DNA of 45,042 bases from Candidatus Omnitrophota bacterium (GCA_030605095.1 JAUWBJ010000003.1:1-45042), one strand, 5' to 3'. Shown: positions 22,322 through 31,378, numbered from the stretch's first letter. The notes: a model not told the origin generated them from the letters alone. Made by a program: numbers and translations.

Positions 22322-22824
22322 AGACCAAAGACCAAAAACCAAAGACCAAAGACATAAAAATATATTGCGATATTACCAAATGCGTTGGTTGCCGTTCCTG
22401 CGAGATAGCCTGCGCGGTCGAGCATTCTAAATCGAAAGATATTTTTTCGGCTGTTCGCGAAAAACCGTTACCAAAAAAGAGGGTAACGACAGAAAACATA
22501 GGTGCTAAAATTATTTCACTGCATTGTCAACACTGCGAAGATGCGCCGTGTATAAAGGCCTGCATGAGTGGCGCGTTATCAAAGGATGAAAAAACAGGCG
22601 CTACATTGCACGATAAGGAAAAGTGCGTTGGATGCTGGATGTGCGTCATGGTTTGTCCTTTTGGTGCGATAGTAAGAGATATTGAGAATCACATAGCGGT
22701 TAAATGCGACCTCTGCCCGGATAGGGATGAGGACTATGCCTGCGTTGAAGCATGTCCGACAGGGGCTTTGTTTACCGGCACTAAGGAAGAGTTTGAGAAG
22801 AAGATAAAAGGTCGGAAAAAGTGA
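22318..22824 (+). CDS. cooF: 4Fe-4S dicluster ferredoxin, CooF-like
   Basis: Multiple CxxCxxCxxxC(P) motifs. The GTG start overlaps the cooS stop as GTGA. The Lys-rich N-terminus is encoded by AAGACCA repeats. Confidence 0.8.
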   Translation: MKTKDQKPKTKDIKIYCDITKCVGCRSCEIACAVEHSKSKDIFSAVREKPLPKKRVTTENIGAKIISLHCQHCEDAPCIKACMSGALSKDEKTGATLHDKEKCVGCWMCVMVCPFGAIVRDIENHIAVKCDLCPDRDEDYACVEACPTGALFTGTKEEFEKKIKGRKK

Positions 22825-23157
22825 ACCCCGCCCTTCCTAAAGAAGCAAGGAAGGGCTGGGTGAACCCCGCCCTTCCTAAAAGAAGGAATTGGTATTATAT
22901 ATATTTACTAAGTAGTAAAATTAAACAATGGATTTATATAGGATGTACAAGTGATCTGAAGAAAAGATTAATAGAGCACCAACAAGGAAAACTATTTTCA
23001 ACAAAAAAAATGTTACCAATAGAATTGATATATTTTGAAGCCTACAGATCTAAAAAAGTAGCATTTGAAAGAGAAAAGGCTTTGAAAAAATATGGAAGTG
23101 GTTTAGCAAAGCTAAAGTCTAGAATTGGCATTATAAGCAAAGGAAGGGCGGGGTGAA
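22821..23157 (+). mobile_element. Palindrome-bounded insertion: a 39-bp ORF-less hairpin unit plus a 293-bp unit carrying a GIY-YIG ORF, each bounded by GTGAA
   Basis: GTGAA occurs at 22821, 22860 and 23153. The inverted termini are CCCCGCCCTTCC (22826-37, 22865-76) and GGAAGGGC(T/G)GG (22848-59, 23142-52). The interior is about 27% GC by hand count. Confidence 0.6.
22860..23156 (+). CDS. GIY-YIG nuclease family protein (small stand-alone URI domain)
   Basis: WYYIYLL..IYIGCTSDLKKRLIEHQQGK..E..A..REK.LK matches the GIY-YIG core. GTG 22860 has an AGGAAGG SD 5 nt upstream; GTG 22821 is an alternative start. Confidence 0.75.
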   Translation: MNPALPKRRNWYYIYLLSSKIKQWIYIGCTSDLKKRLIEHQQGKLFSTKKMLPIELIYFEAYRSKKVAFEREKALKKYGSGLAKLKSRIGIISKGRAG

Positions 23158-24458: not shown

Positions 24459-27143
24459 ATGTCGAAGATTGTAGCGAGCGCTGCCATAAGGGGTGCAAAG
24501 GCACTGGTAGCAGAAGCCGAGAAGCTTGTCAACAAGGCAATCGAAGAAAAAGGCAAGGATCAAAAGATAGAATTTCCTGAGACGGCATTTTTTCTTCCGA
24601 TGGCAAATGCCCTTTTAGGCGCTGAAGTGAAGACGCTGAAGGAGATAGAACCCGTGCTTAAAGAAGCGAAATCGCTTTTACACGATGAACCTACAAAGGA
24701 ACTTTGGCTTCCCTATTTAGGAGACGCGCTTGATTCAGGAATTGCCGCCCTTTTAGCGGAGGAGATTATCTGTGCTATGCGCTACCTAAGTGGCAAAGAG
24801 CCGCAGTCCGGCTGTAACGGTTTTTTCACGGATACAATACTTCGCACCCTCGGTATACAGCTCGTGGACGGAAGGATGCCGGGTTTCGCGGCGATATTGG
24901 GTGCGGCACCCGACAACAAAACAGCCGTGGAAATAGTGAGGGAATTCCAAAAAAGAAGCATAATGACCTTTGTCGGCTCAAGTTCGAACGGAAAAAGTAT
25001 TATAGACCAGCTGAAAGAAGAAAAAGTGGAAATGGGCTGGGATACATATATAGTTCCTTACGGAAGAGATACAATATCAGCCATATATCCTTTACACTGG
25101 GCCATAAGGGGTGCTCTTACATTCGGCGGTATAAAAGCAGGAAACGCGAAAGAATGTTTATTATATTGCAAAGAAAGGGTTTTTGCGTTCGGCCTTACAC
25201 TCGGCCCATTAGACGACATTAAATACGCCACAGGCGCCGGCGCGATAAATATGGGATTTCCCATTATTGCGGACACGGATATTCCTGAGATCAGACCGAC
25301 AGGTATTTGCACCTATGAGCACCTTGTGAAAGAATTTGACTATAAAAGGATTGTCCAGAAGTGCATTGAGGTAAGGGGCGTAAAGGTAAAAGTATCCAAG
25401 ATACCCATACCCGTTACTTATAGCGCTGCTTTTGAAGGCGAAAGGGTAAGGCGGGAACAGATGCATGTTCAGTTCGGCGGAAAATTCTCCTCTGCCTTTG
25501 AATTTGTCCGCTCAAAACCGCTTAATGAAGTTGAGGACGGGAAGATAGAGGTTGTCGGGCCGGAAATTGAGGACATGAAAGAGGGCGCGGCTTTCCCGCT
25601 CGGCATATTGGTAGAGGTTGCCGGAAGGAAAATGCAACACGATTTTGAACCCATACTTGAAAGGCAGCTACACGGCTTTCTAAACGAAGCGATGGGGATC
25701 TTCCATATGGGACAAAGAAATATGTGCTGGATGCGGATTTCAAAGGAAGCGCATAAGAAAGGTTTTAAGATAAAGCATTTCGGAACAATTATTCATGCCA
25801 GGTTCCACGATACATACGGAAAGATTGTAGATAAAGCACAAATTACTATCTTCACAAACCAGAAGGATGTGGATAAAATTGTGCCGGAGGCAATAAAGGT
25901 CTACGAAGAACGCGACGCTCGCCTCGCGGGTATGACTGACGAGAGCGTGGATACGTTTTATAGTTGTACGCTTTGCCAGTCGTTTGCCCCAAACCACGTC
26001 TGTATGGTAAAACCCGAACGTTCCGGACTTTGCGGCGCTTACTCTTGGCTTGATGCGAAGGCCTGTTACGAATTAAATCCGTCAGGGCCAAACCAGCCTG
26101 TTAAAAAAGGCGAAGCCCTTGATCCGGTTCGCGGTGAGTGGAAAGGCGTGAACGACTTTATTCATCAGAAATCCAACAAGACCTTAGAGAGATTTCACGG
26201 TTATTCGATTATGACATGGCCGGAAACGAGTTGCTGCGTTGGAGATACGGAGGTATTAATCGATAACAAAGTTGTGAAAATAGGCGAGTTTATCGACAAG
26301 CATAGAGGAGGAGAAGAATATACCAAATTTAAAGTCCTTACTTTAAATGGCGATAAGACTGTAAAAGAAAATATCGTTGCTATGCAAAAATTTCCTGCCC
26401 CTAAAGAATTGGTAAAAATTACGACAAGAACCGGTAAGGATCTTATATTAACAAAGGAACACAAAGTATTTCTTGATAGGTTTGGCTGCAGAGTAGGCCT
26501 TCGAGCCGATCATATAAAACAAGAGGATAGAGTTGTAGCCCTTAAAGAATCAAGGCGTAATGTACCAGTACTCAGAGAAAAAATAAACAATAGCAGGACT
26601 CTTACAATAGATACAGATTACTTTCTGGACATTGTTACTGACGTTAAAATAATTAAAAAGCATAAATTTGATTATGTGTATAATTTGACTCTTTCCGACA
26701 CACATAGTTATTTTGCTAACGGGATGCATATTGCAAATTGCGGATGTTTCGAATGTATAATTGCAATCTTACCCGAGGCAAACGGATTTATGGTTGTTAA
26801 CAGAGAATACTCCGGCTTTACGCCTGCCGGGATGAAGTTTTCAACCCTTGCCGGCTCTGTCGGAGGGGGCAACCAGACACCGGGATTTATGGGTGTGGGA
26901 AGACTCTATCTTGTAAGCAAGAAGTTTGTATCTGCCGATGGCGGAATAAAAAGGCTTGTGTGGATGCCGAAGGAACTCAAAGAGACACTCAGCGCTAAAT
27001 TAAAGAAAAGGTGCGAAGAAGAAGGCATACCGGATTTATTTGATAAAATTGCAGATGAAACCGTTGCGACTGAATCCGAACCACTCCTGAAATTTTTAAA
27101 GGAGAAAAAGCATCCTGCGCTTACTATGCCGCCACTTGTGTAA
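24459..27143 (+). CDS. acsB: CO-methylating acetyl-CoA synthase (A-cluster subunit), intein-containing precursor
   Basis: CTLCQSFAPNHVCMVKPERSGLC [4Fe-4S] motif and CGCFE Ni-Ni motif. It is 894 aa, or 725 aa without the insert. Confidence 0.95.
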   Translation: MSKIVASAAIRGAKALVAEAEKLVNKAIEEKGKDQKIEFPETAFFLPMANALLGAEVKTLKEIEPVLKEAKSLLHDEPTKELWLPYLGDALDSGIAALLAEEIICAMRYLSGKEPQSGCNGFFTDTILRTLGIQLVDGRMPGFAAILGAAPDNKTAVEIVREFQKRSIMTFVGSSSNGKSIIDQLKEEKVEMGWDTYIVPYGRDTISAIYPLHWAIRGALTFGGIKAGNAKECLLYCKERVFAFGLTLGPLDDIKYATGAGAINMGFPIIADTDIPEIRPTGICTYEHLVKEFDYKRIVQKCIEVRGVKVKVSKIPIPVTYSAAFEGERVRREQMHVQFGGKFSSAFEFVRSKPLNEVEDGKIEVVGPEIEDMKEGAAFPLGILVEVAGRKMQHDFEPILERQLHGFLNEAMGIFHMGQRNMCWMRISKEAHKKGFKIKHFGTIIHARFHDTYGKIVDKAQITIFTNQKDVDKIVPEAIKVYEERDARLAGMTDESVDTFYSCTLCQSFAPNHVCMVKPERSGLCGAYSWLDAKACYELNPSGPNQPVKKGEALDPVRGEWKGVNDFIHQKSNKTLERFHGYSIMTWPETSCCVGDTEVLIDNKVVKIGEFIDKHRGGEEYTKFKVLTLNGDKTVKENIVAMQKFPAPKELVKITTRTGKDLILTKEHKVFLDRFGCRVGLRADHIKQEDRVVALKESRRNVPVLREKINNSRTLTIDTDYFLDIVTDVKIIKKHKFDYVYNLTLSDTHSYFANGMHIANCGCFECIIAILPEANGFMVVNREYSGFTPAGMKFSTLAGSVGGGNQTPGFMGVGRLYLVSKKFVSADGGIKRLVWMPKELKETLSAKLKKRCEEEGIPDLFDKIADETVATESEPLLKFLKEKKHPALTMPPLV
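26232..26738 (+). other. Mini-intein (169 aa) within acsB
   Basis: CCVGDTEVL (block A), LTKEH (block B), VYNLTLSDTHSYFANG (block F), and MHIAN followed by Cys+1 (block G). About 34% GC versus about 52% in the flanking exteins, by hand count. Confidence 0.85.
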
Positions 27144-28670: not shown

Positions 28671-30608
28671 ATGGAAAAATTTAAAGTTGTTTTTAAGCCT
28701 GCGGGGAAATCCGCTGAAGTGAAGAAGGGCGCCGATCTTCTCTCTACCAGCGTTTCTTGCGGCCTGCACATAAATTCGAGCTGCGGCGGAGAAGGTGTAT
28801 GCGGGAGATGCAAGGTAATAATTAAAAAAGGTAAATTCAGAACCGAGCCCACCGGAAGAATCTCTCACGAAGAGAGAAAGAAGGGCTATGTCTTAGCCTG
28901 TCTTACGACTGTTGAGGGGAACCTCGAAGTTCTCATCCCCAAAGAGTCGCGGCTTGACCTTAGCAAAATTAAAGAAGGAGATGCGCGGCTTCATCGCCTC
29001 AAGGGCATTTATTCAGAGACGGTAGAGGTTGACAAGGGGAGGCCTATTATAAGCGAAGAGGTATTTACCCACAGCCCGATATCAACAAAGGTTTATCTGG
29101 AACTCCCGCCTCCGACCCTGGAAGATATCGCGAGCGACTACGAGAGGCTGACTAGAGGAATAAAGAAAAAATACGACATACCTATAATGCAAACAGGCTT
29201 AAGGAATATACGAAAACTGGGAAGCGTCCTTCGCCACAGCGATTGGAAGGTAACAGTGACCTTAGGCAAGAGAAACGAGACAACAGAGCTCGTAATTATA
29301 GAACCGGGGGACTCTTCCAAAGAAAATTACGGAATTGCTTTTGATATCGGCACAACGACGGTGACGGGGCAGCTTATAAACTTGAATACGAAAGAGATTC
29401 TCGGAACGAAGGCAACTTATAACAAGCAGATAGCTTTCGGAGACGACGTAATTACCAGAATCGTATTTGCGACCGAGGGAAACGGGCTCGAGAGACTGCA
29501 CCACGCCGTTATAGATAATATGAATTCAATTATAGAGAAGCTTACAGACGAACATAATATACCCTTGAACCGCGTTACAGGCGTCATGTGCGCAGGGAAT
29601 ACAACCATGATGCATCTCTTGTTAAGGGTAGATCCGACTCATATAAGGAGAGAACCGTATGTCTCAACCGCGAATTTTGTTCCGGTCATAAGATCGGCTG
29701 AAGCGGGCATAAAGGTTCACCCGAGGGGGCTTCTCGCATGTATCCCGGGGGTTAGCACTTATGTTGGAGGTGATATAGTAGCAGGGACTGTGGCCTCGGG
29801 TATAAATAATGAGAAACACCTTACCCTTTTAATAGATGTCGGCACAAACGGAGAAGTAGTTCTTGGAAATAAGGAATGGATGGCATGCTGCTCAGCCAGT
29901 GCAGGCCCTGCCTTTGAGGGTAGCGGTGTTTCCTGTGGTATGAGGGCCATTAAAAGCGCGATAGAAAAAGTCGAGATCAACGCCAAGTTGGAGGCAAAAG
30001 TAAAAACCATAGACGGCGCCAAACCCATGGGGATATGTGGTTCGGGATACGTAGACCTTATTTCAGAGATGTTCAAAAGGGGCATAATAAATAGAGACGG
30101 GAAGATAAATCAGAATCTGAAGAATAAAAGAATTAGAAAAAGCGAGGGTAAATTTGAGTATGTCGTGGTTTTTAAGAATAAAGCTTGTTGCGGTTACGAC
30201 ATAGTTATCAAGGAATCTGATATCGAAAATATAAAGCGCTCGAAAGGCGCGATTTTCTCGGCAGCCTCAATCTTAGTGAAGAAATTTGACATGACATTTG
30301 ACAATATTGAGAGAATCTATATCGCGGGCGGTTTTGGGACATACATTAATATAGAAAATGCCGTTACCATCGGGCTCTTACCCGATGTAAATAGAAAAAA
30401 ATTCAAATTTGTCGGCAACAGCTCGCTTATAGGCGCCCGGGAGATACTTCTTTCGTACGACACTATGAAAAAGGCCGAAGAGATCGCAAGGAAAATGACA
30501 TATATAGAACTCAGCAAAGACCCAACGTACATGGATGAGTATATGTCGAGCCTATTTTTTCCTCACACGAACCTGGAAAAATTCCCGAGCGTGAAAAAAG
30601 CAAGATGA
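28671..30608 (+). CDS. acsV: Corrinoid activation/regeneration protein (RACo; 2Fe-2S ferredoxin + ASKHA ATPase)
   Basis: N-terminal plant-type ferredoxin motif CGGEGVCGRC, an ASKHA domain (FDIGTTTV, IDVGTNGE), and the acs context. ATG 28671 has an AGGTG SD; the track GTG start is 28659. Confidence 0.85.
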   Translation: MEKFKVVFKPAGKSAEVKKGADLLSTSVSCGLHINSSCGGEGVCGRCKVIIKKGKFRTEPTGRISHEERKKGYVLACLTTVEGNLEVLIPKESRLDLSKIKEGDARLHRLKGIYSETVEVDKGRPIISEEVFTHSPISTKVYLELPPPTLEDIASDYERLTRGIKKKYDIPIMQTGLRNIRKLGSVLRHSDWKVTVTLGKRNETTELVIIEPGDSSKENYGIAFDIGTTTVTGQLINLNTKEILGTKATYNKQIAFGDDVITRIVFATEGNGLERLHHAVIDNMNSIIEKLTDEHNIPLNRVTGVMCAGNTTMMHLLLRVDPTHIRREPYVSTANFVPVIRSAEAGIKVHPRGLLACIPGVSTYVGGDIVAGTVASGINNEKHLTLLIDVGTNGEVVLGNKEWMACCSASAGPAFEGSGVSCGMRAIKSAIEKVEINAKLEAKVKTIDGAKPMGICGSGYVDLISEMFKRGIINRDGKINQNLKNKRIRKSEGKFEYVVVFKNKACCGYDIVIKESDIENIKRSKGAIFSAASILVKKFDMTFDNIERIYIAGGFGTYINIENAVTIGLLPDVNRKKFKFVGNSSLIGAREILLSYDTMKKAEEIARKMTYIELSKDPTYMDEYMSSLFFPHTNLEKFPSVKKAR

Positions 30609-31378
30609 GTAACATAATAGCTATAGCAGGTAAGGGCGGAACGGGGAAAACAACCCTCGCGGCTTTGATTGTAAGGATACTTAAAGAAGAAAACGAGGGC
30701 TCTATTCTTGCTATCGACGCTGACCCCAATAGCAATCTCGGAGAACTCTTGGGTATAAAGGATATATCAACGATTGTAGAGATTATAGATGACATCTCCA
30801 AAAATCCCGGCCAGATTCCGCAGGGCGTGACAAAAGACAGATTTATAAATCTAAAGGTGCAGGAATCGTTAAACGAAGAAGAGGGTTTTGACCTCTTAAG
30901 CATGGGAAGGCCCGAAGGTCCGGGGTGTTATTGCTTTGCCAACAATATGTTGAGGGAAGTCATAAAAAAGCTTATGGATAGTTATTCCCATGTCGTAATT
31001 GATAATGAGGCCGGCATGGAGCATCTTTCGAGAAGACTCCTCGGCAGTATAGACACCCTTTTCATAGTAAGTGACACGACAGTCATCGGGATAAGGTCTG
31101 CTTCGAGAATTTCCGAACTCGCCAGCGGATTAAATACAAAAATTAAAGACAGATTCTTAATTTTGAATAAATCAAAAGGTAACGAAGATTCGCTTAAAGC
31201 GGAAATAGATAAAACAGCATTAAATTTAAAAACAGTTTTACCGCTAAACGAAGAACTCGAAGACGCCAGCGTAAAAGGTAAATCTATTTTCGAATTAAGC
31301 GATAAAAATCCCGTATTAAATTCGGTGAGAGAAATATGGAAGTATCAAAAGAAAATTGGACAGGGAAGATTAGCGTAG
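30605..31378 (+). CDS. cooC: CODH/ACS nickel-insertion ATPase (CooC/AcsF family)
   Basis: Deviant Walker A AGKGGTGKTT and the CxC motif GPGCYC. Confidence 0.9.
   Translation: MSNIIAIAGKGGTGKTTLAALIVRILKEENEGSILAIDADPNSNLGELLGIKDISTIVEIIDDISKNPGQIPQGVTKDRFINLKVQESLNEEEGFDLLSMGRPEGPGCYCFANNMLREVIKKLMDSYSHVVIDNEAGMEHLSRRLLGSIDTLFIVSDTTVIGIRSASRISELASGLNTKIKDRFLILNKSKGNEDSLKAEIDKTALNLKTVLPLNEELEDASVKGKSIFELSDKNPVLNSVREIWKYQKKIGQGRLA

Follow-up and report, generated by a model that had tools for sequence, protein, structure and literature searches.

The best structural and sequence matches of the element described here are inteins of archaeal replication proteins and other archaeal proteins, namely Pyrococcus CDC21/MCM-1 (6rpq/6rpp), Pab PolII (2lcj), Mja KlbA (2jmz) and the TFIIB mini-inteins (5o9j), which have the HINT fold. 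The element is a predicted mini-intein in acsB, the gene for a bacterial-type acetyl-CoA synthase (ACS), a key enzyme of carbon fixation, and lies in a 45,042-nt stretch of DNA from an uncultured Candidatus Omnitrophota bacterium (GCA_030605095.1, JAUWBJ010000003.1:1-45042), the whole of which we call the window. It shares with the archaeal inteins the layout of blocks A, B, F and G, as well as an endonuclease between the two lobes in full-length relatives. When 1.84 billion representative proteins were scanned exhaustively with HMMER, using only the intein as query, 148 matches were returned, and archaeal MCM inteins (~30% identity) are among the nearest non-ACS relatives in sequence. The differences are in the host, a bacterial-type ACS, and in the residues at two otherwise familiar positions, since the AcsB intein has Ala or Lys as the penultimate residue and Asn in place of the block-F Asp. 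In addition, the KlbA intein is of class 2 and starts with Ala1, whereas the AcsB intein starts with Cys1.

The intein of Pyrococcus abyssi MoaA resembles the AcsB intein in its host, an oxygen-sensitive metalloenzyme of an anaerobe that is inactive before splicing, and in its cysteine-rich junctions (PMC10663303). The MoaA trap, however, is formed by an N-extein cysteine together with Cys1 (PMC10663303), whereas AcsB has no N-extein cysteine near the junction. The Mycobacterium tuberculosis SufB intein likewise resides in a metal-cluster protein, one of Fe-S assembly rather than DNA metabolism, and its splicing has been reported to be sensitive to metals and stress (PMC8891592). SufB is an assembly scaffold; in AcsB, by contrast, it is the catalytic metal site that the intein divides, with a nickel ligand serving as +1 nucleophile. 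Another metabolic metalloenzyme with a related intein is the tetraether lipid synthase Tes (NCBIfam NF045703), whose intein region is matched by the window intein with an E-value of 7.7e-6. A radical S-adenosylmethionine (SAM) protein (P0137) and a thiamine pyrophosphate (TPP) enzyme (P0131) are also among the nearest non-ACS relatives, at 35-40% identity, but in other hosts and at other sites.

Based on the comparisons below, we consider it probable that acsB of this Omnitrophota-type bacterium carries a class-1 mini-intein, an endonuclease-deleted member of a LAGLIDADG family that splices canonically and persists as a selfish remnant. The gene and its parts are as follows.

24459..27143, + strand: acsB precursor gene, 894 amino acids (aa) with the intein; the end coordinate includes the stop codon
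24459..26231, + strand: N-extein, residues 1-591, ending ...MTWPETS and holding the [4Fe-4S] motif C503-x2-C506-x8-C515-x9-C525
26232..26738, + strand: predicted class-1 mini-intein, 169 aa, Cys1...Asn169, residues 592-760 of the open reading frame (ORF); supported by intein profile models and by AlphaFold2 (AF2)/Foldseek, and skipped by intein-free homologues
26232..26543, + strand: N-terminal splicing lobe, intein residues 1-104, with block A CCVGDTEV (Cys1) and block B LTKEH (T74, H77)
26544..26615, + strand: linker, intein residues ~105-128, KESRRNVPVLREKINNSRTLTID, the apparent scar left where a LAGLIDADG endonuclease and the DNA-recognition region were lost
26616..26738, + strand: C-terminal splicing lobe, residues 129-169, with DYFLDIV, block F VYNLTLSDTHSYFANG (N151, H158) and block G MHIAN (Asn169)
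26739..27143, + strand: C-extein, residues 761-894, starting with Cys+1-Gly-Cys and aligning to residues 592-727 of 7zkj (TS-CGCFE...)

The acsB ORF runs uninterrupted through its 2685 nt, of which the insert takes up 507 nt (169 aa), from TGC at 26232 (Cys1) to AAT at 26736-26738 (Asn169). At the 5' junction the N-extein ends with ccg gaa acg agt (P-E-T-S, 26220-26231), after which the insert opens with tgc tgc gtt gga gat acg gag gta (C-C-V-G-D-T-E-V), and at the 3' junction cat att gca aat (H-I-A-N), ending at 26738, gives way to tgc gga tgt ttc gaa tgt (C-G-C-F-E-C). Removal of the insert leaves 725 aa, the modal length of intein-free homologues, and the ligated junction expected after splicing reads ...WPETS-CGCFECIIAILPE..., with the junction peptide ...IMTWPETSCGCFECIIAILPEANGFMVVNR. 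The same boundaries emerge from structures of the host enzyme. ACS chains in the PDB from Carboxydothermus, Clostridium and Moorella (7zkj, 1oao and others) match AcsB with E-values of ~1e-210 and align to ORF residues 11-592 and 759-893, skipping 593-758, both pieces being contiguous in the target. In 7zkj the first aligned piece ends at ...YPMTSC594 and the second starts at TS-C594-GCFE, while in Moorella 1oao residue 595 falls opposite ORF residue 592 and Cys+1 is the equivalent of Cys595. As for the host itself, the NCBIfam equivalog NF040764 (CODH_ACS_al_bet) matches AcsB with 1012.6 bits (cut-off 800) in two stretches, and the Pfam families CODH_A_N, CdhC and ACS_CODH_B_C match it too. 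The full-length equivalog match together with the presence of all A-cluster ligands identifies the protein as a bacterial-type AcsB, the alpha subunit of carbon monoxide dehydrogenase (CODH)/ACS.

Taken alone, the insert scores above the curated cut-offs of Pfam Intein_splicing PF14890 (46.0 bits, gathering threshold 35.8), TIGR01445 intein_Nterm (50.3 bits, cut-off 24.5) and TIGR01443 intein_Cterm (20.9 bits, cut-off 15.6). Its matches among proteins of solved structure are all inteins (KlbA, PolB, CDC21, TFIIB, PolII, VMA, RadA) with the exception of one marginal match at E 0.15. An AF2 model built on an 11-sequence family alignment (predicted local distance difference test, pLDDT, 62.6; predicted template modelling score 0.59) contains two beta-rich lobes, with residues 104-129 disordered and the linker at pLDDT 28-42. 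When this model was compared with the PDB by Foldseek, the top 17 matches were all inteins (E 2e-8 to 2e-5; template modelling score, TM, 0.39-0.66, with 16 of the 17 at or above 0.52). The best was PhoCDC21-1 (6rpq; E 1.9e-8, TM 0.66), and a hedgehog Hint domain and more inteins came after the top 17. The residues are those of an intein as well: a Cys1 nucleophile and the block B T-x-x-H at one end, and the C-terminal Asn169, Cys+1 (C761) and block-F H158 at the other. Assignment to class 1 follows from the presence of Cys1; there is no Ala1 as in class 2, and, with Asn rather than Cys at the block-F position and TKEH in block B, no Trp-Cys-Thr of class 3. We also considered a bacterial intein-like (BIL) domain and ruled it out, as the Asn169-Cys+1 pair is present and the site is an invariant catalytic motif; BIL structures appear only at ranks 30 and 35 of the Foldseek list, well below the inteins. 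Domains of this kind occur in variable and often secreted proteins, away from conserved host sites, and usually lack such a pair. Neither LAGLIDADG nor any other endonuclease domain was matched by Pfam in the window protein, whereas relatives carry PF14528. Within the window we found no free-standing endonuclease copy and no second intein, and direct or inverted repeats around the insert were limited to short chance matches, without a target-site duplication, as expected for an intein.

All A-cluster ligands are kept, in Moorella numbering C506, C509, C518, C528, C595, G596 and C597, the last three (CGC) being ORF residues 761-763. The cubane motif C-x2-C-x8-C-x9-C at ORF residues 503-525 equals Moorella 506/509/518/528, and with the insert deleted Cys+1 lies 67 residues past the last cubane cysteine, exactly as Moorella 595 lies past 528. 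Ligands of the proximal A-cluster nickel are Cys595, Cys597 and the bridging Cys509, and those of the distal nickel are Cys595, Cys597 and the backbone amides of Cys595-Gly596-Cys597 (PMC10299331). Codon reading, profile matches and structural alignment thus confirm 26232..26738 as a predicted mini-intein in AcsB placed exactly before the nickel-binding Cys-Gly-Cys tripeptide. An earlier interpretation made from the DNA by itself (the sequence-only reading) had proposed as much, and its anatomy stands: the 894-aa ORF at 24459..27143 (+), the 169-aa insert with both of its junctions at 26232-26738, the motifs CCVGDTEVL, LTKEH (T74, H77), VYNLTLSDTHSYFANG and MHIAN followed by Cys+1, the mini-intein character with HINT signatures and no space for an endonuclease, the coincidence of Cys+1 with Moorella Cys595, and the cubane motif with its 67-residue spacing after excision. 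Two checks that it had suggested also turned out as it expected, for the single clean 169-aa gap is seen against both PDB ACS chains and intein-free homologues, and three intein models pass their curated cut-offs on residues 592-760.

Several observations weigh against an intact, canonically splicing intein. The confidence of the AF2 model is only moderate, with both termini below pLDDT 50, and the whole-protein search found this precise 169-aa allele on a single contig. Ala stands at the penultimate position, the usual His being absent, and the residue aligned to the block-F Asp of the KlbA intein (IYDLTV) is Asn151. Finally, although the two computable dN/dS values of the splicing lobes are low (0.08 and 0.13), dS is saturated in most comparisons and these values are rough. 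The penultimate Ala had been recognized in the sequence-only reading; Asn151 had not. Both residues turn out to be shared. Ala or Lys, never His, is penultimate in all 11 aligned inteins at this site, which we call site b, as well as in the C-terminal junctions of the genome loci, and Asn151 is invariant in the site-b family. A penultimate His and a block-F Asp are frequent in inteins but not obligatory, and natural DnaE inteins likewise lack the penultimate His. Because the non-canonical residues are common to endonuclease-bearing, presumably mobile, members, they are family traits, which argues for a working family variant rather than decay.

If they were instead signs of decay, the intein would no longer splice, and this acsB copy would be dead or dying or its product inactive as an ACS. 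Such an outcome would fit the loss of the endonuclease, a linker in which at least two deletions and a small insertion (NSRTLTI) seem to have left their mark, the missing penultimate His and block-F Asp, an allele seen only once, and a glycine-to-cysteine change (G90C; column 90 of alignment A2, intein residue 86) that is private to the window at an otherwise invariant position. We nevertheless regard it as very unlikely. Residues for all four splicing steps are intact and invariant, and the non-canonical ones are found in full-length relatives with an endonuclease. The 2685-nt frame is unbroken, the exteins keep every A-cluster ligand and share 97% identity with an intein-free homologue, and the neighbouring operon is intact. 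In private substitutions the window intein does not exceed the other members, with two at otherwise invariant columns (K to R and G to C) against 0-3 in the others. Invariant positions in the 11-12 family members are C1, T6, T74, H77, D82, D129, V149, Y150, N151, T153, H158 and N169, together with Cys+1, in inteins that are just 48-73% identical to that of the window over the alignment. Identity to the full-length relatives is 46-69% in the N-terminal lobe, and the C-terminal lobe is 63-88% identical to relatives. With C1, T74, H77, H158, N169 and Cys+1 all invariant, the best reading appears to be that class-1 splicing proceeds in the ordinary way ahead of cluster assembly.

How the mini-intein came about can be followed at the protein level. 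Alignment of the window intein to full-length inteins holds as far as ...IKQEDRVVALK and resumes at TDYFLDIV for the remainder, so that ~280-360 residues, comprising the endonuclease and the DNA-recognition region, are missing between its lobes. In terms of the family profile it covers only positions 1-114 and 410-464, with 115-409 missing. In the linker, RNVPVL and REKIN are remnants whose counterparts in the full-length inteins P0002 and P0029, ...RSRPVL... and ...LREKIN..., lie just past the endonuclease. This comparison shows the window copy to be, by all appearances, an endonuclease-deleted derivative of a full-length site-b intein. Two other mini-inteins, of 157 aa (P0006) and 149 aa (L008), have deletion boundaries that differ from those of the window and are cleaner; because of these different boundaries, endonuclease loss seems to have occurred more than once, with at least these two mini-inteins independent. 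At the DNA level the window intein and the full-length inteins of L007 and L010 are too diverged for a MAFFT alignment to place breakpoints or microhomology, and the deletion is therefore mapped at the protein level only.

The site-b intein is not confined to the window. A search with the whole protein brought up AcsB proteins of Candidatus Omnitrophota; among its 120 best matches, 99 are intein-free (77 of them exactly 725 aa long), 11 including the window carry an insert at site b, recognizable by the signature ...ETS|C...N|CGCFEC, and 10 have an intein at a second site, site a. Nine of the 11 site-b inserts are 447-531 aa long and possess a LAGLIDADG_3 domain. P0006 is the 157-aa mini-intein, present on 4 contigs; the two places that were read came from different JGI samples. 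After excision the exteins measure 725-730 aa in all site-b members except P0110 (679 aa), which is missing its N-terminal end. In the scan with the intein alone, the closest matches (48-52% identity) were again in ACS proteins, followed at ~30-40% identity by inteins including those of archaeal MCM, radical-SAM and TPP enzymes. A word-index protein search with the intein alone gave 35 candidates, none of them significant, and missed even the protein of origin, meaning that it is insensitive for a 169-aa query. One genome per species of GTDB was scanned as well, which yielded 15 confirmed loci in species-representative genomes, all 15 in acsB and at the same junction, among them the 149-aa mini-intein of L008. 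These metagenome-assembled genomes (MAGs) are labelled as Omnitrophota, Planctomycetia, Fraserbacteria, Bipolaricaulota or Bipolaricaulia, Anaerolineae and Poribacteria. The survey of public AcsB sequences proposed in the sequence-only reading has thus revealed occupied sites in 11 of 120 closest homologues and in 15 GTDB-representative loci. There is, as judged from these sequences, a family of LAGLIDADG inteins that would home on ...ETS|CGCFEC DNA in AcsB of several uncultured anaerobic lineages.

In base composition the intein stands apart from its host gene. Its GC content is 34.7% (29% at third codon positions, GC3), compared to 46.3% in the exteins (GC3 47.5%), ~48% in the 240-nt flanks and 42.3% in the whole window, where only 1.4% of 507-nt windows are equally AT-rich. 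The hand counts of the sequence-only reading were right for the intein (~34%) and slightly high for the flanks (52%). A sharp drop of this kind on a single contig might be taken for an assembly or binning artefact, in which an intein-bearing fragment has been chimerically joined into an intein-free acsB. Given that both junctions are in frame and codon-precise, and that the same architecture with its GC offset recurs in more than 20 independent assemblies (NCBI, JGI, ENA, Logan), we find this hardly credible. The offset between intein and exteins, 11.6 points in the window, ranges from 5.7 to 13.6 in 8 of 9 other low-GC Omnitrophota-type loci. At the ninth, L011, the overall gap is 5 points and GC3 shows no difference. 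In the high-GC loci of Bipolaricaulota and Anaerolineae (L014, L015) the intein GC equals that of the host (58-59%) with no offset. Such a pattern would fit an element that moves horizontally and entered some lineages more recently than others, and the offsets suggest different residence times of the intein in different lineages. Amino-acid composition also contributes to the GC offset.

The site-a inteins form a family of their own, 540-554 aa long with LAGLIDADG, inserted at FYSCTL|CVPKGE...VVKN|CQSFAPNH (P0022, P0023, P0027, P0030, P0076, P0077, P0088, P0097, P0108 and P0109). They are found in related Omnitrophota and in Poribacteria, and share with the site-b inteins the host enzyme, the LAGLIDADG type and a +1 Cys that is a ligand of the proximal nickel, but differ in the point of insertion. 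Their +1 Cys is Moorella Cys509, the bridge between the [4Fe-4S] cubane and the proximal nickel. Site a lies 86 residues upstream of site b, its equivalent in the window being the Cys506 codon (~nt 25974-25976), and the window has no intein there. No mini-intein version of site a was seen among the 10 examples. Inteins of the two sites are 27% identical over ~530 aa (E 2e-47, in a small 10-sequence database). The homology is real, but in the splicing domain it is no closer than that to archaeal MCM inteins, and an intragenic jump between the sites is not proposed here. In one Candidatus Poribacteria MAG (L016, DTYX01001072.1; ORF with locus positions 2581-2928) a site-a intein and a 486-aa site-b intein occur together, and therefore both nickel-ligand cysteines are splice nucleophiles in one precursor.

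Redox- or metal-conditional maturation, for which the sequence-only reading had seen room, is a speculative possibility. Around the two splice junctions (CC...N|CGCFEC) there are five cysteines, none more than 8 residues away. Oxidation, through disulfides among Cys1, Cys2, Cys+1, Cys+3 and Cys+6, or binding of Ni or Zn to these thiols could hold back splicing and with it ACS maturation, an option that we regard as unlikely. The extension of this idea, that the oxygen-labile A-cluster would be built only under the right conditions, is unlikely to a similar degree. Cys2 is present in 10 of 11 site-b inteins of the protein search and in 11 of 12 rows of alignment A2, and the +1 nucleophile is a proximal-nickel ligand at both AcsB intein sites. 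Precedents are provided by stress-responsive mycobacterial SufB and DnaB inteins, by the disulfide-trapped intein of the oxygen-labile P. abyssi MoaA, and by several inteins inhibited by zinc or copper (PMC10663303 for the last two). On the other hand, the N-extein end ...MTWPETS offers no cysteine for a Cys(-3)-Cys1 trap of the MoaA type, and Cys2 is replaced by Val in P0110 and in six loci whose inteins start with CVVG (given as L013-L016 and L019). The host does well without an intein, as 99 of the 120 closest homologues show, one of them 97% identical, and location in conserved catalytic codons is a general rule of insertion of homing inteins for which no regulation is needed. The broader proposal that inteins at Cys509 and Cys595 together represent a redox- or nickel-gated checkpoint on A-cluster assembly we consider improbable.

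A passenger, in other words a selfish remnant that splices in the ordinary way, is favoured for three reasons: the distribution is patchy, with 21 of 120 close homologues having an intein, split over two sites; an intein-free allele that is 97% identical exists; and sites occupied by full-length inteins or mini-inteins coexist with empty ones, as in the classical homing cycle. The pattern is, so far as sequences can tell, that of a selfish homing element and not of a dedicated regulator.

The anatomy, homology, conservation and site of the insert come directly from our analysis, whereas the steps of splicing we infer from canonical intein chemistry. After translation of the 894-aa precursor, Cys1 (C592) would attack the carbonyl of Ser591 in an N-to-S acyl shift, aided by T74 and H77 of block B. 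The thioester would be handed to Cys+1 (C761) by trans-thioesterification, cyclisation of Asn169 (N760) would free the intein of ~19 kDa, and an S-to-N shift would produce a normal Ser-Cys peptide bond in a 725-aa AcsB. Only at this point would Cys+1, Gly and Cys+3 be placed beside the cubane for binding of the two nickels, a step in which the ATPase encoded further downstream presumably helps:

30605..31378, + strand: CbiA/MinD-type ATPase in the CooC/AcsF-type accessory position (Pfam CbiA, AAA_31); the position is conserved in L001, L003 and L004

From knowledge of the family we take this ATPase to be the likely nickel-insertion factor, which would act on AcsB after splicing. The geometry of the site directly implies that splicing must come before completion of the A-cluster: one thiol, that of Cys+1, serves as splice nucleophile and also ligates both nickels, and 169 residues part Ser591 from the CGC. 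The order proposed in the sequence-only reading, with assembly obligatorily downstream of splicing, rests on this same geometry and holds. Without its endonuclease the intein would be immobile, a selfish remnant. Its retention would be explained by its place in an essential active-site codon, from which nothing short of an exact deletion could dislodge it, and by splicing, which would keep its cost low.

Among intein-free homologues, P0005 is 97% identical in amino acids to the window AcsB exteins. Its gene (L003, 347..2527) has TSGVETA|CGC in place of TWPETS|CGC, with a 1-aa insertion exactly at the homing site, the surrounding sequence being ...GAAACGGCATGCGGCTGTTTTGAATG... Compared with window positions 26150..26240, the junction bin shows a mismatch peak of 24 in 90 nt, the highest of the gene. 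We considered a co-conversion tract in the window allele, but the peak is not good evidence for it, as the window flank PETS is common among homologues and the TSGVETA flank of P0005 is the oddity. The TSGVETA allele may have been left behind by loss of an intein, or it may resist the endonuclease. A different kind of exchange is suggested by the mosaic AcsB proteins P0029 and P0105 (and by loci L007 and L011), whose N-terminal domain looks foreign: identity to the window is only 45-47% over the first ~300 residues but 75-86% over the rest of the exteins. The break, near residue 300, falls at the edge of the N-terminal domain, as might result from recombination of whole domains between distant acsB lineages.

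The surroundings of acsB are those of an intact Wood-Ljungdahl operon, with genes for MTHFR, FolD, CODH, a ferredoxin (Fer4), a flavoprotein, AcsB, AcsC, RACo, a CooC-like ATPase, AcsD and AcsE, and the gene order around acsB of intein-bearing relatives is the same as in the window. A 111-aa ORF with a GIY-YIG nuclease domain (Pfam, 48 bits) is located between the ferredoxin and flavoprotein genes, at window positions 22821..23156 (+). It overlaps both neighbours by 4 nt, and the two genes are directly adjacent in the syntenic L001 and L004. It looks like a small mobile nuclease gene, possibly inserted in this contig only. In L001 (850..1260 of the Omnitrophota MAG contig JBARPB010000021.1) a 136-aa ORF of the PDDEXK_3 nuclease family sits between the MTHFR and FolD genes, so that the Wood-Ljungdahl cluster of this relative also harbours a small nuclease gene.

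Are these inteins new? No paper linking inteins with ACS, CODH, acsB, cdhC, the Wood-Ljungdahl pathway or these phyla was found in open full text, subscription journals and supplementary tables of intein surveys being outside the scope of the search. As far as can be told, the AcsB host and the insertion site are undescribed, while the mechanism is of a known kind. The suspicion voiced in the sequence-only reading that the site had not been reported thus agrees with the open literature, but the case is not a one-off, for many public acsB genes are occupied at the site. The sequences are already public with automatic Pfam intein and LAGLIDADG matches, and the NCBI product name of at least four of these proteins (P0002, P0004, P0011 and P0022) is only 'LAGLIDADG family homing endonuclease'. 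Pipelines that rely on names or expect a 725-aa protein could miss the acetogenesis marker acsB in Omnitrophota, Bipolaricaulota, Poribacteria and related MAGs. A small (149-169 aa) Cys1/Cys+1 intein family with non-canonical blocks F and G is also a possible tool for protein engineering. Moreover, the AcsB intein is a clean test case for whether splicing and metallocluster insertion compete for the same thiols. If splicing of AcsB were indeed gated, the Wood-Ljungdahl pathway would be under the control of a naturally conditional intein, with ACS committed to A-cluster assembly only under permissive conditions. The AcsB inteins are a clear example of homing inteins settling in the most conserved and least mutable codons, and they extend the host range of inteins to a central enzyme of the Wood-Ljungdahl pathway at two separate sites, each on a cysteine of the proximal nickel.

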